DNA of 64,000 bases from an uncultured delta proteobacterium (GTDB lineage Bacteria > Desulfobacterota > Binatia > Binatales > Binataceae). Within the stretch, counting starts at the first letter, position 1. Every line of letters starts with the position of its first letter. Of the stretch, positions 3,274 through 63,209 are shown in pieces. The notes beneath the pieces are model-generated. The model made no database searches, was not told where the DNA came from, and was given only the letters and a program-made list of their open reading frames with translations. A program made the translations under genes and the position numbers. Location of the stretch: positions 38,628 to 102,627 of the forward strand of contig CAWCDG010000008.1 of assembly GCA_963794325.1 (NCBI GenBank). The letters run 5' to 3'.

Positions 3274-3284
3274 CTTCTTTCATT

Positions 3285-3328
3285 CTGGTTCCCCTTCCCA
3301 CTATGGGAAGGGGTTTGGGGGTTAGGTT
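3285..3328. repeat. REP-like repeat family A copy 1 (CCCCTTCCC-loop-GGGAAGGGG hairpin plus G-rich tail)
   Basis: ctggttCCCCTTCCCActaTGGGAAGGGGtttgggggttaggtt; matches copies at 42148, 43009, 45453 and 63041. Confidence 0.85.
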
Positions 3329-42100: not shown

Positions 42101-42147
42101 AGGTGTAGTGTGCTGTATACATTGGCATTCGGCAAGGGATCCGAGGC

Positions 42148-42189
42148 AACCTAACTCCTGCCCCCTTCCTTCGGGGGAAGGGGAACCAG
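42148..42189. repeat. REP-like repeat family A copy 2
   Basis: aacctaactcctgcCCCCTTCCttcgggGGAAGGGGaaccag (reverse orientation relative to copy 1). Confidence 0.75.
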
Positions 42190-42245: not shown

Positions 42246-43022
42246 ATGTGCACCCTGGCCATCTACTTTCAGTCCACCGGCGATTATCCGGTTGTGATTG
42301 CGGCTAATCGCGATGAGTTTCTCGAGCGGCCTGCGGCGGACCCCACTACCCTGCTCGAACATCCGCATGTGATCGGCGGGAAGGATCTCAAAGCCGGCGG
42401 GACCTGGCTCGGGATCAGTCAGAATGGAATCGTTGCGGGGTTGCTGAATCGGCGGGCCGAGAATGGCGGAAACCCGAATGCGCGATCGCGCGGGCTGCTC
42501 TGCCTCGACGCGCTCCGGCGCAGCACTGCGCGCGAGGCCGCTGAGTTCGCATCGCGGGAGCGCGGCTCGGATTACAATCCGTTCAATTTGTTGATCGTGT
42601 CGCGCACCGAGGCGTTCGTTGCTTACAATCGCGGCGCGTCGATCGAAGTGGTCGAGATCAAGCCGGGGCTGCATCTGCTGTCCAATCTCGATTTGAATGA
42701 TTTCGAGTGTCCGAAGATCAGCGCCTCGTACGGGAAGTTTGCGGCACTAGGGAATCGCGAGGATTTTCAGCGCGATCCAGTCGGCAATAGGTCTGCGCTC
42801 GGGGCGTTGCTGGCCGACCACAATACGCAGCTCGATTCGCGCACTGGACGGCCTAACGCCTTGTGTCTGCATCTCGATAATTATGGGACGCGGTCGTCCA
42901 GCTTGATTTTCCTGGCCGCGGACTCCACGGAGATTGCCCACTACTTTGCGCCGGGGCCGCCGTGTGTGACCGCGTATGGTCCAGCGATGGTCCCGCGACG
43001 CGAGAAGGAACCTAACCCCTAA
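42246..43022 (+). CDS. NRDE/TANGO2-family protein
   Basis: MCTL start, AANRDEF, DLKAGGTWLG, SRGLL, YGTRSS. Confidence 0.92.
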   Translation: MCTLAIYFQSTGDYPVVIAANRDEFLERPAADPTTLLEHPHVIGGKDLKAGGTWLGISQNGIVAGLLNRRAENGGNPNARSRGLLCLDALRRSTAREAAEFASRERGSDYNPFNLLIVSRTEAFVAYNRGASIEVVEIKPGLHLLSNLDLNDFECPKISASYGKFAALGNREDFQRDPVGNRSALGALLADHNTQLDSRTGRPNALCLHLDNYGTRSSSLIFLAADSTEIAHYFAPGPPCVTAYGPAMVPRREKEPNP

Positions 43023-43047
43023 CCCCTTCCCTCGAGGGAAGGGGAAC
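43009..43047. repeat. REP-like repeat family A copy 3 (supplies the NRDE stop codon)
   Basis: aacctaacccctaaCCCCTTCCCtcgaGGGAAGGGGaac. Confidence 0.88.
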
Positions 43048-43071: not shown

Positions 43072-43257
43072 CTATGTGGTGAAGTAGGCGGCGATGCCGG
43101 TGAGGATGAAGCATCCGATGGCGATTGAGGCGGAGGCCAGGAAAATCGAGGCGAGGAACGGCGGCTCGATCACGAAGAACAGGATGAAGCCGGCCACCAG
43201 CGCGACGACGCTCGCCATTATCGCGAAGACCATACTCACGTTGCGCAATTGCACCAT
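43072..43257 (-). CDS. Small two-TM membrane protein
   Basis: 61-aa very hydrophobic ORF (MVQLRNVSMVFAIM...) with GGAG 5' of the ATG. Confidence 0.6.
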   Translation of the reverse strand: MVQLRNVSMVFAIMASVVALVAGFILFFVIEPPFLASIFLASASIAIGCFILTGIAAYFTT

Positions 43258-43359
43258 CGCGGCTCTCCAAATCGCCTTGACGCCAAGGTGCAGCTGAGTA
43301 TACGCCGTGAGTTGATCGAACGCGGCGTGGGACGCGGACCGATTGGGGGTTTTGAATTG

Positions 43360-44418
43360 ATGCGCATTAGCCGAAAGCCGATTGCATTCCTGATTCTCGC
43401 GATTGCTGTAGCAGTTGCAACCGCGTACCCGGTCCGCGCGCAGTTGGGGCAGTCGGGACTTAGCTGGCAGCAACGCTTCCTCGGGATCATTCCGCTGGTC
43501 AAGCCCGACCCGAAAGACCCGGTGGTGGTCATGGTCAACGGCGCGCCGATTACTGCGGCCGAAATCGCCGACTACGCGAAGACCGAAGCGAATATAATCG
43601 GCGCGACCAGCACCGAGGAAAACAAAGCGGTGTTTCGCGACGCGAGCGAGAATTTAATCAATCGGCAGTTGCTGATGCAGGAAGCGGCGAAACGCAAGAT
43701 CACGGTAACCGACGGCGAAGTGGCGAATCGCGCGCGCGAGTTCCAGATTGGAGGCGCCGGCGGACAGACCGCGCCGCAGACCGGCGCCCCCGATGCGCAA
43801 CTGATGGCCGCGGTGCGCGGGTCGATGATGATCGAGAAGATGCTCGACGACGAGTTCCGCGCGCATCATGTGCAACCCACCGATGCGCAGATTCAGAATT
43901 ACTACGAGGAGCATCGCGATCTGTTCGTCAAGGATCCCGGCGAGGTCGAGCTCGCGCATATTGCGGTCAAGCTTCCACCCAACGCGACCGAGGCGCAGAA
44001 GAAAGCGGCGGCGGAAAAAATAATCGGAATTTACAACGAGGCGAAGAAGACCAAAGACTTCGCCGCCCTCGCGAAAAAGGACTCGGAAGACACCGAGTCG
44101 GCGGCAAAGGGCGGCGACCTCGGCTACTTTCGGCCCGGGCAGTTGCCGCCGGTTGTGGACAAGGTGGTGTTTGCGACGCCGGTCGGACAACTGACGCAAA
44201 TCGTCGAATCGAATCTCGGTTTCAGCTTCATCAAGGTCGTCGCGCGGCGCGGGGAAACCATCTCGCCGCTGTCGGAGGTGAAAGCGAAAATCGCGATGTT
44301 CATCCTCGATGAGAATGAAGATGCGGTAGTGAAGGCGCTTATCAAGAAGATCGCGAAAGGCGCGAAGATCGAATTCAAGACCCCGCCGGGTGGGGAAGGC
44401 GCAGCAAAAGGAACTTGA
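43360..44418 (+). CDS. SurA/PrsA-like parvulin peptidyl-prolyl isomerase
   Basis: Signal peptide, VNGAPIT, AHIAVK, DFAALAKKDSED..KGGDLGYF. Confidence 0.88.
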   Translation: MRISRKPIAFLILAIAVAVATAYPVRAQLGQSGLSWQQRFLGIIPLVKPDPKDPVVVMVNGAPITAAEIADYAKTEANIIGATSTEENKAVFRDASENLINRQLLMQEAAKRKITVTDGEVANRAREFQIGGAGGQTAPQTGAPDAQLMAAVRGSMMIEKMLDDEFRAHHVQPTDAQIQNYYEEHRDLFVKDPGEVELAHIAVKLPPNATEAQKKAAAEKIIGIYNEAKKTKDFAALAKKDSEDTESAAKGGDLGYFRPGQLPPVVDKVVFATPVGQLTQIVESNLGFSFIKVVARRGETISPLSEVKAKIAMFILDENEDAVVKALIKKIAKGAKIEFKTPPGGEGAAKGT

Positions 44419-44421
44419 TTG

Positions 44422-44535
44422 AATGTGAAACCCGCGGTGGGTTTCACGCTTCCTTCGGCAGGGCTAAGCCCTGCACCTTAGTATTAGGAGAAGATGCGGG
44501 ACTTCGTCCCTATTAAAAGGTTGGGGGGCGGAGGC
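44422..44535 (-). repeat. Three-hairpin repeat family B copy 1
   Basis: Hairpins GTGAAACCC/GGGTTTCAC, GCAGGGC/GCCCTGC and GGGAC/GTCCC; reverse complement aligns with 63090-63205 and 58575-58640. Confidence 0.88.
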
Positions 44536-44549
44536 CCCGGTCCTTCTTG

Positions 44550-44613
44550 CCTCGCCCGTTATTTTACGGGAGAGGTGGCCGGCGGGCGCAGCCGCCGGTA
44601 GGTGAGGGTTCTG
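44550..44613. repeat. 64-bp repeat family C copy 1
   Basis: 63/64 identical to 53359-53422 by manual alignment. Confidence 0.9.
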
Positions 44614-44676
44614 CGTTCAAGATTGAAGCATGACACGTCAACGCCTGCTCTTTTGCATACTCAGAGAGTACCGCCG

Positions 44677-45408
44677 CTATACAAGGAGGCGGCCGCCTTC
44701 CAGCGGCAATACAACGCCGGTGGCGAAGTCGGTTTCGCAGAAGAAGACTACGGCGCGGGCTACGTCATCAGGCGTTCCCATTTTTCTTGTCAGCGTGCGA
44801 TTTACCAGGCGCTCAATTTCTTCCTTGGTGTAACCCTCGGGAGGAATCACCATCCCCAGTGCTATGCAATTGACCTGGACTGTTGGGGCTAGTTCTTTGG
44901 CTAGCGCTCTTGTGAGGCCTATCATCGCGCTCTTTGATACCGAGTATGGCAGGTAGTCTTTGTAGGGACGGATACCGGCCCAGTCGCCGATGTTTATGAT
45001 TTTTCCGGCGCCCTGCTTGCGCATCGCAGCTCCAGCGAACTTCGACAGGAAGAATGGCGCCTTCAGGTTGGTGTCGAGGTTCTCGTCCCAGTCTTGCTCG
45101 GTGATGGTTTCGAGAGGCGTTGGTCCAAAGACTGACGCTGAGTTGACGAGGATGTCGATCCGGCCGAAGGCTTCAACGATCTTTGCGATCAATTGCTCGA
45201 TTTCGGCGACGTGCTCGAGGTCGGCGCAAAAGGCTTGCGCTTTGCCGCCGTTACTTGTGATCTCGGAGACTACTGCGTCAGCTTCGGATTGCGAGTTGCG
45301 ATAGTGCGCGGCGACGCTAGCGCCGTGCGCAGCGAGATCCAGCGCGATTGCGCGCCCGACGCGCCGTCCGGCCCCGGTTACGAGTGCTACTTTGTTTTTC
45401 AGCTCCAC
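44677..45408 (-). CDS. SDR-family oxidoreductase (pteridine reductase-like)
   Basis: TGAGRRVG, VNSAS, YSVSK (YxxxK). Confidence 0.88.
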   Translation of the reverse strand: MELKNKVALVTGAGRRVGRAIALDLAAHGASVAAHYRNSQSEADAVVSEITSNGGKAQAFCADLEHVAEIEQLIAKIVEAFGRIDILVNSASVFGPTPLETITEQDWDENLDTNLKAPFFLSKFAGAAMRKQGAGKIINIGDWAGIRPYKDYLPYSVSKSAMIGLTRALAKELAPTVQVNCIALGMVIPPEGYTKEEIERLVNRTLTRKMGTPDDVARAVVFFCETDFATGVVLPLEGGRLLV

Positions 45409-45452
45409 CGTGAGATGCGGACGAAAGCAAAATTCTGCCGCCCTTTTTAAAT

Positions 45453-45495
45453 CCGGTTCCCCTTCCCTCGAGGGAAGGGGTTAGGGGTTGGGTTC
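45453..45495. repeat. REP-like repeat family A copy 4
   Basis: ccggttCCCCTTCCCtcgaGGGAAGGGGttaggggttgggttc. Confidence 0.88.
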
Positions 45496-45511
45496 TTAAG
45501 GCGCGGATTTG

Positions 45512-46786
45512 TTAAGAGATGGCCGCGTGGATAGCCTTTACCAGAGCCAAGTTGTCGGAGTGGCCGGTCTTCGATGCGGTTACGTGCGCTTGCAGAGGAC
45601 GCCCTAGCAGGTACAGATCGCCGATCAGGTCGAGGACTTTGTGGCGCGCGAATTCGTCGCGAAAGCGCAGCGTCGTATTCACCACTTTTTCATCGTCCAC
45701 CAGGATCGCGTTGTCAATGCGGGCGCCGCTGCCGAGGCCTAACTGCGCGAGCTTGCGAAATTCCCAGACGAAGCCGAAAGTTCGTGCCGGCGCTATCTCG
45801 CGCGTGTAGGCGTCCGCAGAAGTCAGCTCGAAATGCAACTGCTGAACGCCAATCGGCTTTGGATAGTCGAGCGTATAGTCGATGATCAGGTGATCAGCAG
45901 GTTCGACCTTGATGAACTCCAGGCCCTCGCCTTCCTCACCGATGATGATCTTGTCCTTGATTCGAATCGGCTCGACGGTCGCGTCCTGATCGGTCAATCC
46001 GGCTTCCGCCAGCTGTTTGCAGAATTCGATAGCCGATCCGTCGAGCGCCGGAACTTCGTCGTCAGTCTTAACCAGCAAGTTAGTGATCCCGAACGCGTGC
46101 AGTGCCGACAGCAAATGTTCGACGGTGCGCACCGAACGGCTGCCGCTGGTAAGGGTGGTGTTGTATCCGGTGTCGGTCACGTTCTCGAAGCAGACCGGAA
46201 TCGCGGTCTCGTCGGCCAGCGAAGTGAACACGATTCCAAATCCCGCGGGCGCCGGATGCAGTATGACGCCGGTCTTGAGCCCCGTGTGAAGCCCCTGCCC
46301 TCCCATCACGATCGAACGCCCGACAGTTCGTTGAGGAGTCGCCCCGGCCCGAATCGCCTCGCGGCCGGCGGCGCGAACTTCGGCGCTCATCCCGCGCACG
46401 TTTGATGGATCCGGACCGGCGGAGTCGCCTTCGAGCGCGCGCGCGATCGACGCGAGCAATCCACTGACCGAGAATGGCTTTTGAATGAAGTCGGCGGCGC
46501 CGAGCTTGGTCGCCGCAACCGCGCTCTGGATGTTGGCATGGCCGGAAATCATGATCACCGGCACTCGCGGCTGCTCGGATTTGATTCGGCGCAGCAACTC
46601 GATGCCGTCCATGTCAGGCATCCAAACGTCAAGCAGAACGATTGCGGGACTTTCCCGCGCAATCAAATCCATCACGCCCGGCGCGTTGCCTGTATCGACC
46701 ACGCGAAAGCCTTCGTCGCTTAAAATTCCACGCAAAGACGACCGAATCCGCTCCTCATCATCAACCACCAGCACGGTCTCGTTCAC
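45512..46786 (-). CDS. lpxC: Receiver (REC) domain fused to UDP-3-O-acyl-N-acetylglucosamine deacetylase LpxC
   Basis: N-terminal VLVVDDE, LLDVWMPDMDG, MISGH, FIQKPF; C-terminal QRTV, GLHTG, TVEHLLSAL, PALDGSA, ARTFGF, RHKVLDLIGDL, GH. Confidence 0.92.
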   Translation of the reverse strand: MNETVLVVDDEERIRSSLRGILSDEGFRVVDTGNAPGVMDLIARESPAIVLLDVWMPDMDGIELLRRIKSEQPRVPVIMISGHANIQSAVAATKLGAADFIQKPFSVSGLLASIARALEGDSAGPDPSNVRGMSAEVRAAGREAIRAGATPQRTVGRSIVMGGQGLHTGLKTGVILHPAPAGFGIVFTSLADETAIPVCFENVTDTGYNTTLTSGSRSVRTVEHLLSALHAFGITNLLVKTDDEVPALDGSAIEFCKQLAEAGLTDQDATVEPIRIKDKIIIGEEGEGLEFIKVEPADHLIIDYTLDYPKPIGVQQLHFELTSADAYTREIAPARTFGFVWEFRKLAQLGLGSGARIDNAILVDDEKVVNTTLRFRDEFARHKVLDLIGDLYLLGRPLQAHVTASKTGHSDNLALVKAIHAAIS

Positions 46787-46837
46787 GTCAGATTTTCTCC
46801 GGGAGGCGCGCTACGTCGCAGCGCGGTAAGGGTCGCA

Positions 46838-49066
46838 TCAGCCGGTCGCCTTTGCGAATTGCTGTAGCTTAACAGGGAATTCCAGCACAAATCTACTTCC
46901 GCGCGGCCGGTTATCGGTCACACGGACGAATCCGTGATGGTCCGTGACCACCGCGGAAACGATCGCAAGGCCGAGACCGGTGCCGCCCTTTTTGCCCGAA
47001 TAGTACGGCTCGAAAATGCGCGTGCGCAGCCGCGGATCGATTCCGGGGCCGTTGTCCGCGACCTCGAGAGTTACCAGCGAGTTGTCTGAAAGCCGGCTGC
47101 TGCGCACTTCGATCTTCGGACCGGCGCCGTTGTGATTGATCGCGGTCACCGCGGCGACGGCGTTGTCGAGCAGGTTGACCAGCGCGCGCTTCATCGCGTC
47201 GCGATCGATCGGGATAAGCGGAATCGCCGGATCGAGCGCAAGCGCGAACTCGACGTTGGGATTCGCCTCACGGAAATTCGCGACCGTCTCGCTGGCCAGC
47301 GCGTTGATGTCGCCGGGAACCGGATTCAAATGCGGCATTCGCGCGAACGCCGAGAACTCATTGACCAGGCGTTTCAGATCTTCGACTTCGCCGATAATCG
47401 TTTTCGTGCATTCTTCAACCAGCGTCGATTCGATTCCCGGGCGCGCGCCGAGCTGACGCCGGAGCCGTTCGGCCGAGAGCTGGATTGGTGTCAACGGATT
47501 CTTGATCTCGTGCGCGATTCGGCGGGCGACTTCGCGCCACGCTTCGATCCGTTCGACCTTCGCAATCTGGCTGACGTCTTCGAAAAACAGCACCGTGCCC
47601 GAGGGCTCGTCGGGCGCGTCGCCCAGCGGACTGGCGGTCATCATCAATTCGGTCTCTGCGCCACTGACTTCGAGCTTGACCGTCGAGCGCGCCTCGCGCG
47701 GCCGCGTCGCGAACGCGAACACGTCGTCAAGCGCGCGCGCCAGCGCGACCGGGAACGCGCCCTGGTAATTACGGCCGATTACGTCGGCAGCGCTAAGATC
47801 GAGCAGCCGCTCGGCGCATGGATTGATCGTCGTGACGACGCCGTCGTGATCGAGGCCGACCACGCCCGCCGACACGTTGCGCAGCAGTGTCTCGGTGTAC
47901 TGGCGGCGGCGCTCGAGCTCCGCGGCTGAGGAGCGCAAATCGGCCGTCATCTGGTTGAACGAATCGACCAGGTGCCCGATTTCGTCGTCCCCCACCGCGG
48001 GAATTCGGAAATTGAGATCGCCGGCCGCGATCGCCTGCGTCCCGCGCGCGAGCAGTTTGATCGGTCCGGTGATTCCGCGCGACAGAAAAATTCCAAACCA
48101 GCTCGCCAGCGTCACCACCACCAGTCCGATCAGCACCAGCGTGATCAGGTAGCTGTTCATGATCGGCTGACGAAGGATTCGCAATTGAAAATAATCCTCC
48201 GACACGCGCGAGATGTTGGTCGCCCGCGTCGCGAGGCTCTGCGGCAGGTAATAATCGACCAGCACTGCGCCGAGCACATTGTCAGTCTCACTCGACACGT
48301 AAATAGGCGCCGATCCGCGGATCACGTCCGCATCACCGAGACGATCGGTGCGCGTGAGCGCCTGTCCTTTCAGCGTCTGCGAGATAATCGGCGAATCGGG
48401 CGATGCGCCGACCCCCGTCGGTGTTTTCGGGCTAAGGTCGATGAGCAGTAGTTTGCGATCGGCGGAGAAGACCTCGATCGTGCCGAGGTTGTACTCCTGC
48501 TGCCGCTTGGCGATGAACTTTTTGAGCTCGTCGCGCTTGCCGGGCGCGAGCAGGCCTTGCGCCGCGATCTCTTCCGCCAGCACGCGCGCGAAATGCGACG
48601 CGTTGTTGGCCGAGTTGAGATAGTAGGTCTTCGCGATCTCGAGCGAGTCGTTGAGAATCTGCTCGTACTCGGGATTGAACCAGCTGTTGATGTCGGCATG
48701 GAGGAAGACGCCCGACACGTAGAGCAAGAACGCGCTCGGAATCAGCGCGACCGCGATGAAGCCCGCGACCAGCCGCACCTGGAATTTTGATCCGATCAAT
48801 CCGCGGCGGCGCTCGAAGATGACCTTGGCGAGATTGCGTCCCACCAGGAACAGCATCAAGGCCAGCAGCAGGAAGCTCAGGTTGAAGAGCGAGATGACGG
48901 CGAGGTTCGAGACCAGCGACGTATGCCGAGTGAGCGGTGGCAACTCGGTCTGCGCGAGCACGAATGCGATCAGCGTCACGCCCGCCACGCCGACCGCGAT
49001 CAGCTCGCGACGACGCCGCTTGCGCTCTGCGAGCCGATGGGGGCTTACGGGTTTCTCAGCGGCCAA
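46838..49066 (-). CDS. NtrY-like HAMP-PAS sensor histidine kinase
   Basis: Three N-terminal TMs, periplasmic domain, HAMP, PAS, AWREVARRIAHEIKNPLTPIQLSAERL, NLLDNA, DNGPG, GTGLGL. Confidence 0.92.
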   Translation of the reverse strand: MAAEKPVSPHRLAERKRRRRELIAVGVAGVTLIAFVLAQTELPPLTRHTSLVSNLAVISLFNLSFLLLALMLFLVGRNLAKVIFERRRGLIGSKFQVRLVAGFIAVALIPSAFLLYVSGVFLHADINSWFNPEYEQILNDSLEIAKTYYLNSANNASHFARVLAEEIAAQGLLAPGKRDELKKFIAKRQQEYNLGTIEVFSADRKLLLIDLSPKTPTGVGASPDSPIISQTLKGQALTRTDRLGDADVIRGSAPIYVSSETDNVLGAVLVDYYLPQSLATRATNISRVSEDYFQLRILRQPIMNSYLITLVLIGLVVVTLASWFGIFLSRGITGPIKLLARGTQAIAAGDLNFRIPAVGDDEIGHLVDSFNQMTADLRSSAAELERRRQYTETLLRNVSAGVVGLDHDGVVTTINPCAERLLDLSAADVIGRNYQGAFPVALARALDDVFAFATRPREARSTVKLEVSGAETELMMTASPLGDAPDEPSGTVLFFEDVSQIAKVERIEAWREVARRIAHEIKNPLTPIQLSAERLRRQLGARPGIESTLVEECTKTIIGEVEDLKRLVNEFSAFARMPHLNPVPGDINALASETVANFREANPNVEFALALDPAIPLIPIDRDAMKRALVNLLDNAVAAVTAINHNGAGPKIEVRSSRLSDNSLVTLEVADNGPGIDPRLRTRIFEPYYSGKKGGTGLGLAIVSAVVTDHHGFVRVTDNRPRGSRFVLEFPVKLQQFAKATG

Positions 49067-49070
49067 TTCG

Positions 49071-49283
49071 TCAACGCCTCACCAGCGAAAGAAATATTGT
49101 CGCAACGATGCTGATTAGAATGCATGTGACGATGGGAAAATAGAAAGTGAAGTTGCCGCGACGGACGTAGATGTCGCCGGGCAGTTTTCCGATAAGTGGT
49201 ACCGACGAGAATCCCCACAGCAGTAGTCCCACGGCGACTATCGCGATTCCGGCGAAGACCAGGTTTTTTCCTATCGGCGCCAT
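49071..49283 (-). CDS. DUF2905-like small membrane protein
   Basis: GKLPGDIYV..NFTFYFPIVTCILISI signature. Confidence 0.85.
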   Translation of the reverse strand: MAPIGKNLVFAGIAIVAVGLLLWGFSSVPLIGKLPGDIYVRRGNFTFYFPIVTCILISIVATIFLSLVRR

Positions 49284-49360
49284 CGCACAGCTGCCTCTGG
49301 CCCGATTGTACAAGACGCGCGGCCCTTACAATACAAGGGCAGACGGCCTGATCGACGGCT

Positions 49361-51478
49361 TTATGCGTGCGCGTGGGCGTGCGATTTGGCCCCGGCGGCC
49401 TCGCGCGCCGCATGCGTTTCCTTGACTATCTTTTCCGCGACCGGAGCCGGAGCCTCCTCATAGTGCGAAAAGTGCTGCTCGAACGATCCCCGCCCCGACG
49501 TGATCGATCGCAGGTCGGGCGCGTATTTCAGCACCTCCGACATCGGCACCTGCGCCTTGATCACCTGGCCGTTACCCTTGCTGTCCATGCCGAGGACCTT
49601 GCCGCGACGCGAGTTCAGATCGCCAATCACGTCGCCCATGCATTCGTCGGGACACGCCACTTCGATCGCGACGATCGGTTCGAGGATGATCGGCCGCGCT
49701 TTTTCCAGCGCCGCCTTGAATCCCATCGAGGCCGCAATCTGAAACGCCATGTCCGACGAGTCCACATCATGATAGCTGCCGTCGAACACGGTGACGCGCA
49801 CGTCCACCATCGGATACCCGGCCAGGAATCCCTCGGGCAGCGTATTGCGCACGCCCTTCTCGACCGACGGAATAAAGTTGCGCGGGATCACGCCACCGAC
49901 GATGTTGTCGACGAACTCGAAGCCTTTGCCGCGCGGATTCGGCTCGATCTTCAACCAGCAATCGCCGTATTGCCCGCGTCCGCCTGACTGCCTCTTGTAC
50001 TTGCCCTGCGCCTCGGCGCGTCCCTTGATCGTTTCCTTGTATGGCACCTTGGGCGCTTGCAGCTCGACGTCGACATTGAATTTCCGGCGCAGCTTCTCGA
50101 CCGTGATTTCGATATGCATCTGGCCGGTGCCCGACAATATGATGTCGTGGGTCTGCGGATCGCGATGCATCTCCAGCGAGAGGTCCTCCTCTATCAGCTT
50201 CTGCAGCGCGGCCGACGACTTCTCCTCGTCGCTTTTCGTCTTGGGATGAATCGCAAAAGAGATGACGCCACTCGGACGCGTCAGCGGCGGCATGATTAGC
50301 ACCGGCGCCTTCTCATCGCACAGCGTGTCTCCGGTCGTCGTGTCCTTCAACTTCGCGACGGCGACGATCTCGCCCGCGATCGCGCTGGCAATCGGCGATT
50401 GCTTCTTGCCTTCAAGCCGCAGCAATTGACCGAAGCGCTCCTTCGTTTCGCGGGTCGAATTGAGCACCGACCCATCGCTTTGCGCGTGTCCTGAAATAAT
50501 CCGGAAGATCGACAGCTTGCCCGCAAACGGATCGATAATCGTCTTGAACACCAGCGCGGCGAACGGCGCTGCCGGATCTGCAGGACGACTCACGGGCTCG
50601 CCGGTCGTAGGATTTTGGCATTCGACCGGCGGTCGCTCGTTGGGCGCGGGCAGATAGGTCGTCACCGCATCGAGCAGCGGCGCGATTCCGATATTTTTGG
50701 CGCCGGATCCGCAGAACACCGGCGTGATTTTCCGCTCGACGACGGCCGCATGCAGCGCCGCGCGAACTTCAGCGTCGTCGAGAGTGCCCTTGTCGAGATA
50801 TTTTTCGAGCAGCGCGTCGTCAGTCTCTGCCACCGCCTCGAACAGCGCGGTGCGCGCCGCTTCCGCCTGTGTCTTCAGCTCCGCGGACAGTTCCTCTTCC
50901 TTGAATTTGCCGCTGGTGTCGGCATAGGTCAGCGCTTTCATCGCGAGCACGTCCACCACGCCCTTGAAGCCGAGCTCCTCGCCAACGGGAATCGTCAGCG
51001 CGACGGCGCGCGCGCCGAGCACCTTCTCGAGGTCCTTCATCGCGGCCTCGAAGCTGGTGCGCTCTCGATCGAGCCGCGACACGAACGCGATTCGCGGCAG
51101 CTTGAGCTCTTCGGTCGCGGCCCAGATTTTTTCCGATTCGATCTTGGTGTCCGCGCCCGGACTTATCAGAATCACGACCCCGTCCACTGCGCGCAACGTC
51201 GTGAGCGTCTCGGGCAGAAACGCGGTGTAGCCGGGCGTATCGGCGAAAACTACTTCAGTTTTTTTCCAGTTGAGATGATTGAACGAGGAACTAATCGAAA
51301 TATGATGCTTGGTCTCCTCGGGCTCGAAGTCCATCGCGGCCGATCCGTCGTCAGGCCGTCCGAGTCGTGGCGCCGCACCCGCCGTAAAGAGCATCGCATC
51401 CGCGGCCTGCGTCTTGCCGGTCCCGCCCTGGCCCACGATTGCGATTGTCCGAAGCCTGTTGATTTCCTCCACAGCCAT
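49361..51478 (-). CDS. Elongation factor G paralog (EF-G2-like)
   Basis: GQGGTGKT, DTPGY, GQMHIEI, KRQSGGRGQYG, DGSYHDVDSSDMAF, GDLNSRRG; GAGG RBS before ATG 51478. Confidence 0.9.
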   Translation of the reverse strand: MAVEEINRLRTIAIVGQGGTGKTQAADAMLFTAGAAPRLGRPDDGSAAMDFEPEETKHHISISSSFNHLNWKKTEVVFADTPGYTAFLPETLTTLRAVDGVVILISPGADTKIESEKIWAATEELKLPRIAFVSRLDRERTSFEAAMKDLEKVLGARAVALTIPVGEELGFKGVVDVLAMKALTYADTSGKFKEEELSAELKTQAEAARTALFEAVAETDDALLEKYLDKGTLDDAEVRAALHAAVVERKITPVFCGSGAKNIGIAPLLDAVTTYLPAPNERPPVECQNPTTGEPVSRPADPAAPFAALVFKTIIDPFAGKLSIFRIISGHAQSDGSVLNSTRETKERFGQLLRLEGKKQSPIASAIAGEIVAVAKLKDTTTGDTLCDEKAPVLIMPPLTRPSGVISFAIHPKTKSDEEKSSAALQKLIEEDLSLEMHRDPQTHDIILSGTGQMHIEITVEKLRRKFNVDVELQAPKVPYKETIKGRAEAQGKYKRQSGGRGQYGDCWLKIEPNPRGKGFEFVDNIVGGVIPRNFIPSVEKGVRNTLPEGFLAGYPMVDVRVTVFDGSYHDVDSSDMAFQIAASMGFKAALEKARPIILEPIVAIEVACPDECMGDVIGDLNSRRGKVLGMDSKGNGQVIKAQVPMSEVLKYAPDLRSITSGRGSFEQHFSHYEEAPAPVAEKIVKETHAAREAAGAKSHAHAHA

Positions 51479-51571
51479 GGAGTTCACCTCTCAGCTTGCC
51501 CGCCGGGACCAGCGCCGATTTCAGAGCGCCGCGCCCCGATCGATGCAGTTATTTCGCCGTCCTTACATATT

Positions 51572-53309: not shown

Positions 53310-53705
53310 CCGGTGTCATTCAGAGAGTCTGTGAAGTGATTGAGCGCAGCGAATCTTACCTCGCCCGTTATTTTACGGGAGAGGCGGCCGGCGGGCGCAG
53401 CCGCCGGTAGGTGAGGGTTCTGGGCCACATCACAAACGCCGGGCAGCTCACTTTTTGTGTCATTCAGAGCGCAGCGAAGAATCCCGGATCCTTCTTCCCC
53501 TCTCTCTGTCAGGGAGAGGATCAAGGTGAGGGTCCGTGTACAGCGCGCTTCCTTCGGCGCGCGATGCAAGATACCGCTCCCATCCTTAAAAGGTTGTCGA
53601 CCCTGCCCGGCGTTGAACCTCACCCGCGCTCGCCGCGTTCCGCGCTCCCGCGACCTCTCCTCGGACAATGAGAGGTTAATACCTTCGCTGCGCTCAGAAC
53701 GGCAG
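53310..53705. repeat. Mosaic of REP-like palindromic elements in the nadC-valS spacer (includes family C copy 2 at 53359-53422)
   Basis: GTCATTCAGAGCGCAGCGAAG (53459) versus CTTCGCTGCGCTCAGAACGGC (53683) inverted pair; CCCTCTCTCT/AGGGAGAGG..GGTGAGGG (about 53498-53532); degenerate inverted family C unit at about 53616-53675. Confidence 0.8.
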
Positions 53706-58574: not shown

Positions 58575-58646
58575 TCACTGGGTGCAGGGGTCACCCCTGC
58601 CGAAGGAAGCGTGAAACCCACCGCGGGTTTCACATTGAATAAAGTG
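58575..58646 (+). repeat. Repeat family B copy 2 (two hairpins)
   Basis: tcactgggtGCAGGGGtcaCCCCTGCcgaaggaagcGTGAAACCCaccgcGGGTTTCACattgaataaagtg. Confidence 0.88.
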
Positions 58647-62988: not shown

Positions 62989-63040
62989 ATCCCATTGCAT
63001 CGCGACCTTTGCCAGCAACCCTTCGTTGCTCAGGCAGGCT

Positions 63041-63080
63041 CTAACCCCTAACCCCTTCCCGAACGGGAAGGGGAACCGGA
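63041..63080. repeat. REP-like repeat family A copy 5
   Basis: ctaacccctaaCCCCTTCCCgaacGGGAAGGGGaaccgga. Confidence 0.88.
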
Positions 63081-63089
63081 CGCGAAGAA

Positions 63090-63209
63090 GCCTCCGCCTC
63101 ACTAAATTCTAACAGGGACGAAGTCCCGCATGTTTCTTTTCACTGGGTGCAGGGGTCACCCCTGCCGCGGAAGCGTGAAACCCGCGAAGGGTTTCACATT
63201 AAATAAGTG
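63090..63209 (+). repeat. Repeat family B copy 3 (three hairpins)
   Basis: GGGACgaaGTCCC, GCAGGGGtcaCCCCTGC, GTGAAACCCgcgaaGGGTTTCAC. Confidence 0.88.

Follow-up and report, generated by a model that had tools for sequence, protein, structure and literature searches.

The receiver-LpxC locus

The window, i. e. the whole stretch of 64,000 nucleotides analysed here, belongs to the metagenome-assembled draft genome (10 contigs, 85% complete) of an uncultured soil bacterium of the class Binatia. On its reverse strand it carries an uninterrupted ORF of 424 aa with a GTG start (45512..46786, (-)). This ORF consists of a receiver (REC) domain (residues 1-120; 46427..46786, (-); Pfam PF00072), a flexible linker of low conservation and low pLDDT (residues 121-150; 46337..46426, (-)) and an LpxC domain (residues 151-424 plus the stop codon; 45512..46336, (-)), which is supported by Pfam, NCBIfam and alignment to solved structures. 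ORF and Pfam matches agree with the single frame of REC, a linker of about 30 aa and LpxC described in the earlier note.

Directly upstream lies a gene for a sensor histidine kinase of 742 aa (46838..49066, (-)). As claimed before, it is of the NtrY type: Pfam matched NtrY_N (29.1 bits, cut-off 23.2), HAMP, PAS, HisKA and HATPase_c, and this is the only NtrY_N match of the genome. Hydropathy segments at residues 19-42, 49-85, 95-124 and 300-333 suggest about three N-terminal spans, a periplasmic loop of ~175 aa (~125-300) and a fourth span. The kinase stop codon and the start of the fusion are separated by 51 nt (46787..46837, (-)). This gap contains a GGAG motif about 10 nt 5' of the start codon, a ribosome-binding motif, and no terminator-like site; the two genes are probably co-transcribed. 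A scan of positions 44500-49600 for sigma-70 promoters and terminators gave nothing above shuffled sequence. The NtrX output had been reported missing from the window, and this holds for the contig, on which no NtrX/NtrC-type gene was found besides the fusion's own REC.

A palindromic repeat of ~40 nt, one of five copies in the window, is located just 3' of the fusion stop codon (45446..45495, no strand assigned) and could be where the transcription unit ends. In soil runs this repeat had a very high summed contig depth and many loose ends at its borders.

Reality of the fusion

In a draft metagenome assembly of 10 contigs and 85% completeness, two genes could be joined by misassembly or by a frameshift, or a free LpxC could be translated from a methionine in the linker. 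Misassembly can be excluded because the best 120 database relatives of the fusion all keep both domains (120/120) and because contigs obtained in other studies run across the junction (e. g. record 27 of run X6, 46287-46576). In addition, 26 of 201 sampled genomes match the fusion across both domains. Separate translation of LpxC, the alternative start considered in the earlier note, is unlikely since the linker methionine is retained in just 13 of 118 relatives. We therefore regard an artefact of any of these kinds as hardly credible.

Standalone LpxC also occurs: a contig search returned, among the matches listed, at least 79 loci with LpxC on its own and one (L046) with the fusion. Apparent kinase-REC-LpxC hybrids in frames of 1007-1423 aa from three high-GC relatives were rejected, as the kinase reads in a different frame.

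The LpxC domain

The assignment of the C-terminal domain is clear. Pfam LpxC (PF03331) matches residues 152-420 over profile positions 1-267 of 268 (E 1e-82, 278.1 bits, cut-off 27), and the NCBIfam equivalog lpxC (TIGR00325) scores 248.9 bits (cut-off 187.25). The AF2 model superimposes on the PDB structure of A. aeolicus LpxC with a TM score of 0.95 and an rmsd of 1.6-1.8 A. E223, H224, H382, K383, D386, D390 and H409 are invariant in an alignment of 43 family sequences and line up with the motifs of P. aeruginosa LpxC chains; the set without H224 was also tallied in the fused domains and was present in 42/42. We take the EH, HKxxD, D and GH motifs to provide the zinc ligands and catalytic residues and TF to be part of the substrate site. 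Hence the zinc and catalytic motifs (EH, HKxxD, GH) are intact, as noted previously.

No LpxC match other than the fusion was found in this 85%-complete genome, which settles for the available sequence whether a second lpxC exists, and LpxB is encoded as well. One LpxC per genome is also the rule in the class: in 59 of 61 sampled Binatia genomes a single complete LpxC match lies in a frame of 411 aa or more; of the remaining two, one has its match truncated by the end of a contig and the other has a frameshifted locus. The domain is thus predicted to be an active UDP-3-O-acyl-GlcNAc deacetylase, for which the sole LpxC and the presence of LpxB are indirect support.

The receiver domain and its origin

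Pfam Response_reg matches residues 5-114 (E 1e-30, 106.7 bits, cut-off 30.2). The full set of phosphorylation residues reported before is indeed there: the acidic pair D9/D10, the phospho-acceptor D53 in LLDVW (predicted Asp53 codon computed from the ORF start, 46628..46630, (-)), S81 in MISGH and K103 in KPF. Among 118 close-family sequences D9, D10, D53 and S81 are present in all and K103 in 117. D53 is also found in 36 of 38 divergent representatives, namely in 22/23 forms with a short and 14/15 with a long spacing between the domains; changes are confined to single representatives (D53 in one short and one long form, K103 in one of the 15 long forms). In the 118 close-family sequences the identity of REC to its relatives is 0.83-0.97, equal to the level of LpxC. 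Judged by these identities, purifying selection acts on REC no less strongly than on LpxC.

The solved structures nearest to REC were 4d6x and 5m7n, which we take to be Brucella NtrX, the search output giving molecule names only. By sequence, REC is closest to that of the regulators encoded in operons with ntrY (see below). REC scored 96-122 bits against five such operon regulator RECs and 44-67 bits against eight NtrC-type paralogues of its own genome. In the reverse direction, with the operon regulator RECs as queries, REC-LpxC was the best genome-wide match in 5/5 fusion genomes (114-125 bits; runner-up 84-105 bits). By these scores, the REC of the fusion descends from an NtrY-partnered regulator.

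Association with the kinase differs between lineages. The kinase gene is adjacent to the fusion in all six Binatia genomes of the phylum sample (hand cross-tabulation). Outside the class it is adjacent in one of 20 short-form genomes and in six of 22 long or medium candidates (hand tabulation). Where short-form genomes have the kinase elsewhere, ntrY was without a neighbouring regulator in 6/6 cases examined.

Linker and predicted structure

The linker is far less conserved than REC, with an identity to relatives of 0.35-0.59 versus 0.83-0.97. In the AF2 model (mean pLDDT 88.5) its residues 121-145 have a pLDDT below 50. Alignments of pairs of proteins place at this position an AAA+ module and/or a Fis-type HTH in relatives, and in the long forms ~330 residues separate REC from LpxC. 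Given a disordered, variable linker and this spacing, there is no conserved fixed geometry. Despite the disordered linker, the pTM is 0.86 for the window protein and 0.88 for an orthologue with 47% identity, and by our own arithmetic a freely placed REC would limit the pTM to ~0.66. This would point indirectly to a defined packing of REC and LpxC, a reading that comes from pTM values rather than from coordinates or PAE. Complex prediction with REC (1-122) and LpxC (146-424) as separate chains, each supplied with the same alignment, scored 0.02 (mark 0.32), which is neutral on docking.

These features bear on how REC could act on LpxC. Possibly, REC phosphorylation sets the abundance or location of LpxC, by degron exposure or membrane recruitment, and not its catalysis, and so replaces the FtsH/LapB/YejM route. 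A variable disordered linker would be as compatible with such tethering of a regulatory domain as with allostery. Proteolytic control of LpxC is known in E. coli and in certain other proteobacteria, according to the accessible part of a review (PMC12444477). The fused LpxC, which stops 4 residues past the Pfam domain, lacks a C-terminal tail resembling the E. coli degron. Proteolysis by FtsH/LapB/YejM in E. coli is a different means of control from the fusion. Searches of the 85%-complete genome yielded neither a LapB zinc ribbon (PF18073) nor a YejM N-terminal domain (PF11893), which is weak evidence because of this completeness and because the PF18073 control also responds in Gram-positive genomes. 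However, nothing indicates a protease or adaptor, no gene for either is seen conserved beside the fusion locus, and the pTM values hint at direct packing of REC on LpxC. Control of abundance or location is therefore the less probable mode, albeit one to be taken seriously.

Evolutionary history

Relatives with a standalone lpxC point to the origin of the fusion. In 5/5 of those examined, lpxC forms an operon with ntrY and a regulator, in the order lpxC-ntrY-regulator. All five regulators are intact sigma-54 activators with GAFTGA and the Walker B DE pair, and in 4/5 of the operons a sigma-54-type site lies 31-69 nt upstream of lpxC. These arrangements suggest that the ancestral circuit targeted lpxC.

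In other lineages the whole regulator is fused to LpxC in proteins of 650-736 aa. GAFTGA loop and Walker B DE pair are gone in 15/15 of these long forms. Several independent deletions removed the AAA+ module, in some cases together with the HTH, and REC and LpxC were kept each time, as the pair alignments show. Monophyly of the short forms is rejected (p-AU 6e-36). The fused LpxC domains form one clade against 10 standalone rows with a support of 100/97.9; this clade of 44 rows comprises 42 fused domains and two LpxC proteins without REC (P0191 and P0209) nested among them, which may be fragments or a sign that REC is dispensable. An unrooted REC+AAA tree of 15 long forms, five operon regulators and eight own-genome paralogues gave three groups with the fused forms on longer branches and is silent on orthology.

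A quick tree placed short forms at the base of the fused clade. We nevertheless take long before short as the simpler reading, and short forms as probably not ancestral, since the AAA+ of the long forms is decayed and remnants of the HTH survive in closely related long/short pairs. The comparison thus suggests a series from a separate sigma-54 activator via an activator-LpxC with decayed AAA+ and a REC-HTH-LpxC to REC-LpxC. Along this route the entire regulator would have joined LpxC, followed by decay and deletion of AAA+ and HTH. The earlier note had proposed that deletion of the NtrX output from an ntrY-ntrX-lpxC operon created the fusion. This is partly right. The order of the ancestral operon has to be revised to lpxC-ntrY-regulator, and the ancestor was a sigma-54 activator with GAFTGA and not an NtrX of the alphaproteobacterial type, which lacks this motif.

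One fused clade, decay of AAA+ and repeated deletions that spared REC and LpxC argue for coupling of REC to LpxC as the selected function. The same record could be read differently, with REC as a leftover that serves as a phosphate sink or as an aid to co-expression, and with LpxC constitutive and little regulated. AAA+ decayed after the fusion, so parts of the fusion can turn functionless; the two REC-less proteins nest in the fused clade; and outside the class the kinase of most genomes with a short form lies at another locus. Yet a functionless REC fits poorly with purifying selection as strong as that on LpxC and with the survival of REC through several independent deletions of everything between it and LpxC. 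Moreover, the kinase has no other neighbouring partner in the fusion genomes examined, which leaves a phosphate sink without a competitor. We consider a leftover REC unlikely.

Comparison with known systems

A circuit of similar logic is known from Desulfovibrio. There, lpxC is the only apparent target of a kinase/sigma-54 regulator pair (DVU2931/DVU2934 in D. vulgaris, Dde_3000/Dde_3003 in D. alaskensis G20) and has a sigma-54 site, as far as the accessible parts of the two reports go (PMC3333781; PMC4045070). On this account the pair resembles the lpxC-ntrY-regulator operons of the phylum in the logic of its circuit; these parts of the reports give no domain description of the kinase DVU2931. 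Control in Desulfovibrio is transcriptional and exerted by a separate DNA-binding regulator, whereas here REC is fused to the enzyme and AAA+ and HTH are gone.

The window kinase has the same architecture, NtrY_N-HAMP-PAS-HisKA-HATPase, as alphaproteobacterial NtrY of Brucella, Rhodobacter sphaeroides and Caulobacter. Alphaproteobacterial NtrX, however, is a transcription factor of REC-AAA+-HTH architecture that controls dozens of genes, and the window protein has neither AAA+ nor HTH. In Pfam searches the sigma-54 activator AAA+ (Walker A/B, GAFTGA) was absent from it, and the NtrX equivalog NF051870 reached 124.7 bits (cut-off 600) with the REC part only. By its profile matches and domains, the window protein is thus a derivative of an NtrY-partnered regulator, not NtrX. 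An influence of NtrYX on the envelope and on the lpxC transcript level is reported in the accessible parts of PMC7240162 and the review PMC12444477; in an R. sphaeroides ntrYX mutant the lpxC transcript was 8.8-fold up (PMC7240162).

With respect to architecture, the fusion resembles the receiver-enzyme regulators CheB, PleD and RpfG, in which a flexible linker likewise joins REC at the N-terminus to a catalytic domain at the C-terminus; this is analogy, not kinship. In CheB the active site is covered by the unphosphorylated REC. The output domain of CheB is unrelated to LpxC, and occlusion of the active site in the fusion would be an analogous mode at most. The other catalogued LpxC fusion, LpxC-FabZ (NCBIfam NF009667), carries a C-terminal pathway enzyme instead of an N-terminal signaling domain, and this model matches the window protein with 204 bits, below its cut-off of 465. 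Our literature searches found no published description of LpxC as the output of a response regulator. In the accessible part of a 2025 review on lipid A regulation (PMC12444477) the words fused, fusion, receiver and response regulator do not occur.

Proposed mechanism and significance

The interpretation we favour is that the 424-aa protein acts as the response regulator of the adjoining NtrY-type kinase, with LpxC as its output. The ~175-residue, probably periplasmic loop of the kinase would sense an envelope or redox cue, the kinase would pass phosphate to Asp53 of the receiver, and the phosphorylated receiver would alter the amount of lipid A precursor made by LpxC. The likely means would be that REC docks on the catalytic domain or is released from it, in the manner of CheB, and/or that REC drives dimerisation. 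As the ancestral circuit activated lpxC through sigma-54, our guess is that phosphorylation raises LpxC output. That the enzyme itself is the output had been proposed in the earlier note, and the comparative data fit this, with REC conserved like LpxC and AAA+ and HTH lost repeatedly. On the sequence comparisons and the structural models, we lean, by a small degree, towards direct control of LpxC through phosphorylation of REC by the kinase.

The architecture as such leaves the direction of information unfixed. Occupancy of LpxC by substrate or product could alter phosphorylation or dephosphorylation of REC, and kinase and REC would then read lipid A flux on behalf of another target. No second regulator or other output domain lies beside the kinase, though, and in the ancestral circuit the regulator acted on lpxC and not vice versa, so that a reversed flow seems very improbable.

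For control of LpxC by the kinase, the history would then be that of a kinase/sigma-54-activator pair for lpxC transcription which became joined to the very enzyme under its control. Its ATPase and its contact to sigma-54 would have gone first and its AAA+ and HTH parts next, with REC-LpxC remaining. More tentatively, and rather as a working idea than as the expected outcome, the activator pair may have been short-circuited onto LpxC to give a homeostat in Binatia, in which the periplasmic domain of NtrY reads the status of the outer membrane or LPS and adjusts LpxC activity through phosphorylation, with no need of FtsH/LapB/YejM.

The series of forms documents a natural change from transcriptional to post-translational control with unusual completeness, and it offers ready-made constructs for probing the effect of the receiver on LpxC. 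If the proposed mechanism is true, LpxC would be a new enzymatic output in the repertoire of response regulators, and a membrane sensor would control the lipid flux to the outer membrane directly via phosphorylation.

Anatomy of the fusion and its surroundings

The window carries on its minus strand an uninterrupted ORF of 424 aa (45512-46786), which has a GTG start with a GGAG motif about 10 nt 5' of it. Pfam assigns residues 5-114 to a receiver domain (REC) and residues 152-420 to a complete LpxC domain (profile positions 1-267 of 268). The protein passed the NCBIfam lpxC equivalog with 248.9 bits (cut-off 187). Its top receiver model was NtrX; the score of 124.7 bits is far under the whole-protein cut-off of 600 because REC alone matches the model. 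Solved LpxC chains from P. aeruginosa, E. coli and A. aeolicus align to the LpxC part with E-values of about 1e-45 to 1e-50, and the motifs EH, TFGF, HKxLD, GD and GH are identical in the alignment. The AF2 model (mean pLDDT 88.5) superimposes on A. aeolicus LpxC with a TM score of 0.95. The linker (residues 121-150) shows low conservation and is predicted to be disordered (pLDDT <50 at 121-145). The REC-LpxC anatomy described in the earlier note is confirmed. The fusion is the sole LpxC match in its genome (4.45 Mb, 10 contigs, 85% complete), in which LpxB was also found.

No lipid A gene other than lpxC adjoins the fusion locus. Downstream lie an SDR gene (44677-45408, minus strand) and, about 1.1 kb from the fusion on the opposite strand, a gene for a SurA-like periplasmic chaperone/PPIase with SurA_N and Rotamase domains (43249-44418, plus strand), the only other envelope-biogenesis gene nearby. 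Directly upstream of the kinase gene is an EF-G paralogue with all five EF-G domains (49361-51487, minus strand), which ends in a short His/Ala-rich tail. Genes for a BirA-like ligase, quinolinate phosphoribosyltransferase, a class I tRNA synthetase and a GT4 glycosyltransferase are also close by.

Five copies of a palindromic element (about 40 nt, hairpin core CCCCTTCCC ... GGGAAGGGG) occur between genes of the window (3278-3319, 42143-42187, 43004-43047, 45446-45495 and 63033-63080); the copy at 45446-45495 directly follows the fusion stop. In soil-run contigs its summed depth is 50-200x that of its flanks and many loose ends lie at its borders, which marks it as REP-like and present in many copies in these bacteria. 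Further intergenic repeats are a direct pair of 69 nt (44545-44613 and 53354-53422, 97% identity), an inverted pair of 65 nt (44413-44477 and 58581-58645, 92%) and a direct pair of 28 nt (58575-58602 and 63140-63167, 100%). Several of these gather at 44.4-44.6 kb, in the gap between the SurA-like and SDR genes.

Occurrence of the fusion

A database search with the fusion gave 7848 hits. The best 120 relatives (73-96% identity, about 425 aa) all contain the REC and LpxC Pfam domains, and those with source names carry the labels Candidatus Binatus or Binataceae. Contigs from other soil studies span the LpxC-linker-REC junction (for example run X6, record 27, at 46287-46576; run X5, record 18, at 46295-46445). 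These findings contradict a misassembly or an absence from close relatives. Separate translation of LpxC from the linker Met is unlikely, as this Met is retained in just 13 of 118 close sequences.

In a sample of the class (61 genomes, 17 families) LpxC was present throughout, in 59 genomes as a single full-length match within an open frame that spans 411 aa or more. The two exceptions are G240, where the match is cut by a contig end, and G232 (78% complete), where the sole LpxC match (C5:524273-525078) runs over several frames because of either a frameshift in the gene or errors in the assembly.

In 201 genomes of the GTDB phylum, covering at least 84 families, the query matched across both domains in 26, the window genome included. 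In a further 22, a similar LpxC (41-52% identity) lies within frames of 450-837 aa. Eight of these were inspected: six encode REC, a sigma-54-type AAA+ domain, an AAA lid and LpxC (stop-to-stop frames of 694-837 aa), and two REC, a long linker and LpxC (465 and 488 aa). The remaining 14 are presumed to belong here from their frame length.

From 1.84 billion cluster representatives, searched exhaustively, 150 proteins were listed as matches; 47 of these, picked by rank and length, were scanned with Pfam. REC-LpxC (short form, 412-505 aa) accounted for 22 and REC-AAA+-LpxC (long form, 650-736 aa) for 15, one of the latter with an HTH_8 hit at the strict threshold. Six were AAA+/lid-LpxC proteins without REC, at least two of them N-terminally cut, and four were unrelated multi-REC proteins. 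Source names of the long forms are Nitrospina sp., Nitrospinota and 'Deltaproteobacteria bacterium' MAGs; some carry the JGI label 'NtrX'. Among the 17 REC+LpxC clusters listed in the ESM Atlas, the commonest phyla are Candidatus Binatota and Myxococcota; in a long-form cluster with 381 members it is Nitrospinota.

Conservation of the receiver

D9, D10, D53 and S81 are invariant in the 118 close sequences, and K103 is present in 117. Identity per 20-residue block is 0.83-0.97 in REC and 0.65-0.94 in LpxC, so conservation of REC is at least as high as that of LpxC. The divergent representatives comprise 23 short and 15 long forms; D53 is retained by 22 and 14 of these, respectively, S/T81 by all 38 and K103 by 37. 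From these residues, the receiver of the window looks functional. That the receiver fusion is a functionless relic ranks as the next rival after control of LpxC stability or localisation, and this conservation speaks against it.

Substitutions of D10 (by N), D53 (by S) and K103 (by Q) each occur in exactly one of the 15 long forms. If all three substitutions sit in one protein, this would be a degenerate pseudo-receiver.

The kinase and the origin of the receiver

The NtrY-type kinase gene (46838-49066, minus strand) lies 51 nt upstream of the fusion and encodes 742 aa with NtrY_N, HAMP, PAS, HisKA and HATPase_c domains. By a hydropathy scan, about three spans lie at its N-terminus; a fourth span, ahead of HAMP, follows a loop of some 175 residues that is probably periplasmic. 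The genome encodes no second NtrY_N kinase. Across the phylum sample, 155 of 201 genomes have NtrY_N, with a single match per genome among those listed. Cross-tabulating the LpxC and NtrY_N search results by hand placed the kinase directly upstream of the fusion in all six genomes of the class within the phylum sample, in one of 20 other short-form genomes (G162) and in six of the 22 long or medium candidates. In line with the earlier note, no NtrX-type output partner accompanies the kinase: in a model search no protein of the genome reached the NtrX cut-off, and the NtrC-type regulators, ten or more, are all on other contigs.

Matched to the RECs of five regulators that are partnered with NtrY in other classes, the window REC scored 96-122 bits; eight NtrC-type paralogues from its own genome gave just 44-67 bits. 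With an operon-regulator REC as the query, REC-LpxC was the genome-wide top match in all five fusion genomes searched (114-125 bits versus 84-105 for the runners-up). Judged by similarity in both directions, the REC of the fusion derives from the regulator of the NtrY kinase.

In at least 26 genomes with standalone LpxC, lpxC lies directly 5' of ntrY on the same strand. The five such operons that were read all have the order lpxC-ntrY-regulator, the regulator being a REC-AAA+-HTH protein of 453-470 aa with intact Walker A, GAFTGA and Walker B motifs (5/5). In these (L033-L037) a gap of 320-940 nt separates lpxC and ntrY. In four of these five operons lpxC is preceded, at a distance of 31-69 nt, by a sigma-54-type -24/-12 match (pattern TGG[CT]A[CT]-N5-[TC]TGC[AT]). 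Whole-locus counts on both strands were 1, 1, 2, 0 and 1, and the pattern had no match in the 64-kb window. In all six short-form genomes examined with the kinase elsewhere, ntrY stands alone, with neither regulator nor lpxC adjoining. G034 (L020, L043) and G199 (L044) have a standalone lpxC directly upstream of ntrY, no downstream regulator gene, and a REC-LpxC fusion elsewhere; they may be snapshots of a transition, or have two LpxCs under different control.

The earlier note had proposed that the fusion arose by deletion of the NtrX output from an ancestral ntrY-ntrX-lpxC operon. Derivation from the regulator of the kinase holds, but the order in relatives is different and their regulators carry GAFTGA. 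Our guess is that a tandem duplication of lpxC-ntrY-regulator would have brought a regulator gene beside lpxC, from which the fusion could then have formed.

One origin and repeated deletion

A quick tree of the LpxC domain comprised 108 rows, in which the fusion of the window was joined by 22 short forms, 15 long forms, 4 N-truncated proteins and 66 further LpxCs from the exhaustive search (fragments <262 aa excluded). All fused domains fell into one group (SH-aLRT 99). A careful tree of 54 rows split 44 (42 fused, two REC-less) from ten hand-picked standalone LpxCs with support of 100/97.9. Short and long forms are intermixed; forcing the 23 short forms together, a group set by architecture though after the quick tree had been seen, cost 554 log-likelihood units (p-AU 6e-36). 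On the evidence of these trees the history of the fused LpxCs is one of a single origin and several deletions.

What separates P0141 (491 aa) and P0144 (505 aa) from their sisters of 735-736 aa is precisely the missing AAA+ module, while their Fis-type HTH segment is retained; P0143 (454 aa) has lost both AAA+ and HTH relative to a close long form. The AAA+ modules of the long forms sit on long branches, and the GAFTGA loop and the Walker B DE pair are each present in none of 15. The lost motifs, the long branches and the deletions in close pairs indicate decay and loss rather than insertion, with the caveat that the basal branches of the quick tree are short forms and the root within the fused clade is not fixed.

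Two LpxCs without REC, P0191 (290 aa) and P0209 (283 aa), are nested in the fused clade beside the short forms P0154 and P0149, and may reflect either a secondary loss of REC or gene calls that are truncated.

Possible control of LpxC

In published work, the regulator DVU2934 of D. vulgaris has one mapped target, lpxC, and the orthologous operon of S. fumaroxidans has lpxC directly 5' (PMC3333781). For D. alaskensis G20, lpxC is given as the sole strongly changed gene in a mutant of the kinase Dde_3000, Dde_3003 as a predicted sigma-54 activator, and a sigma-54 site is placed at lpxC (PMC4045070). R. sphaeroides without NtrYX is described with 8.8-fold higher lpxC transcript and increased LPS, an NtrX site being absent at lpxC (PMC7240162). 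In a 2025 review of how lipid A is regulated, NtrYX figures solely as a pleiotropic influence on transcription, and 'fused', 'fusion', 'receiver' and 'response regulator' do not occur (PMC12444477). Our search of the literature outside subscription journals did not turn up a receiver-LpxC or NtrX-LpxC fusion. Response regulators with enzymatic output are already known; as far as we have seen, the REC-LpxC version is unstudied.

A conserved and apparently phosphorylatable receiver is covalently joined to LpxC. Very probably the two-component output is the enzyme itself, the part of the earlier proposal that stands once its origin is corrected. The NtrY-type kinase would phosphorylate D53 of REC, and this would alter LpxC output. 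We lean slightly towards direct phospho-control of LpxC by the receiver; the main rival is that REC controls the stability or localisation of LpxC. AF2 gave pTM values of 0.86 and 0.88 for two orthologues that are 47% identical, despite the disordered linker. By our own arithmetic a freely placed REC would limit pTM to about 0.66, so the models hint at a fixed packing of REC on LpxC, which would fit a CheB-like autoinhibition. Since the ancestral regulator activated lpxC, our guess is that phosphorylation raises LpxC output.
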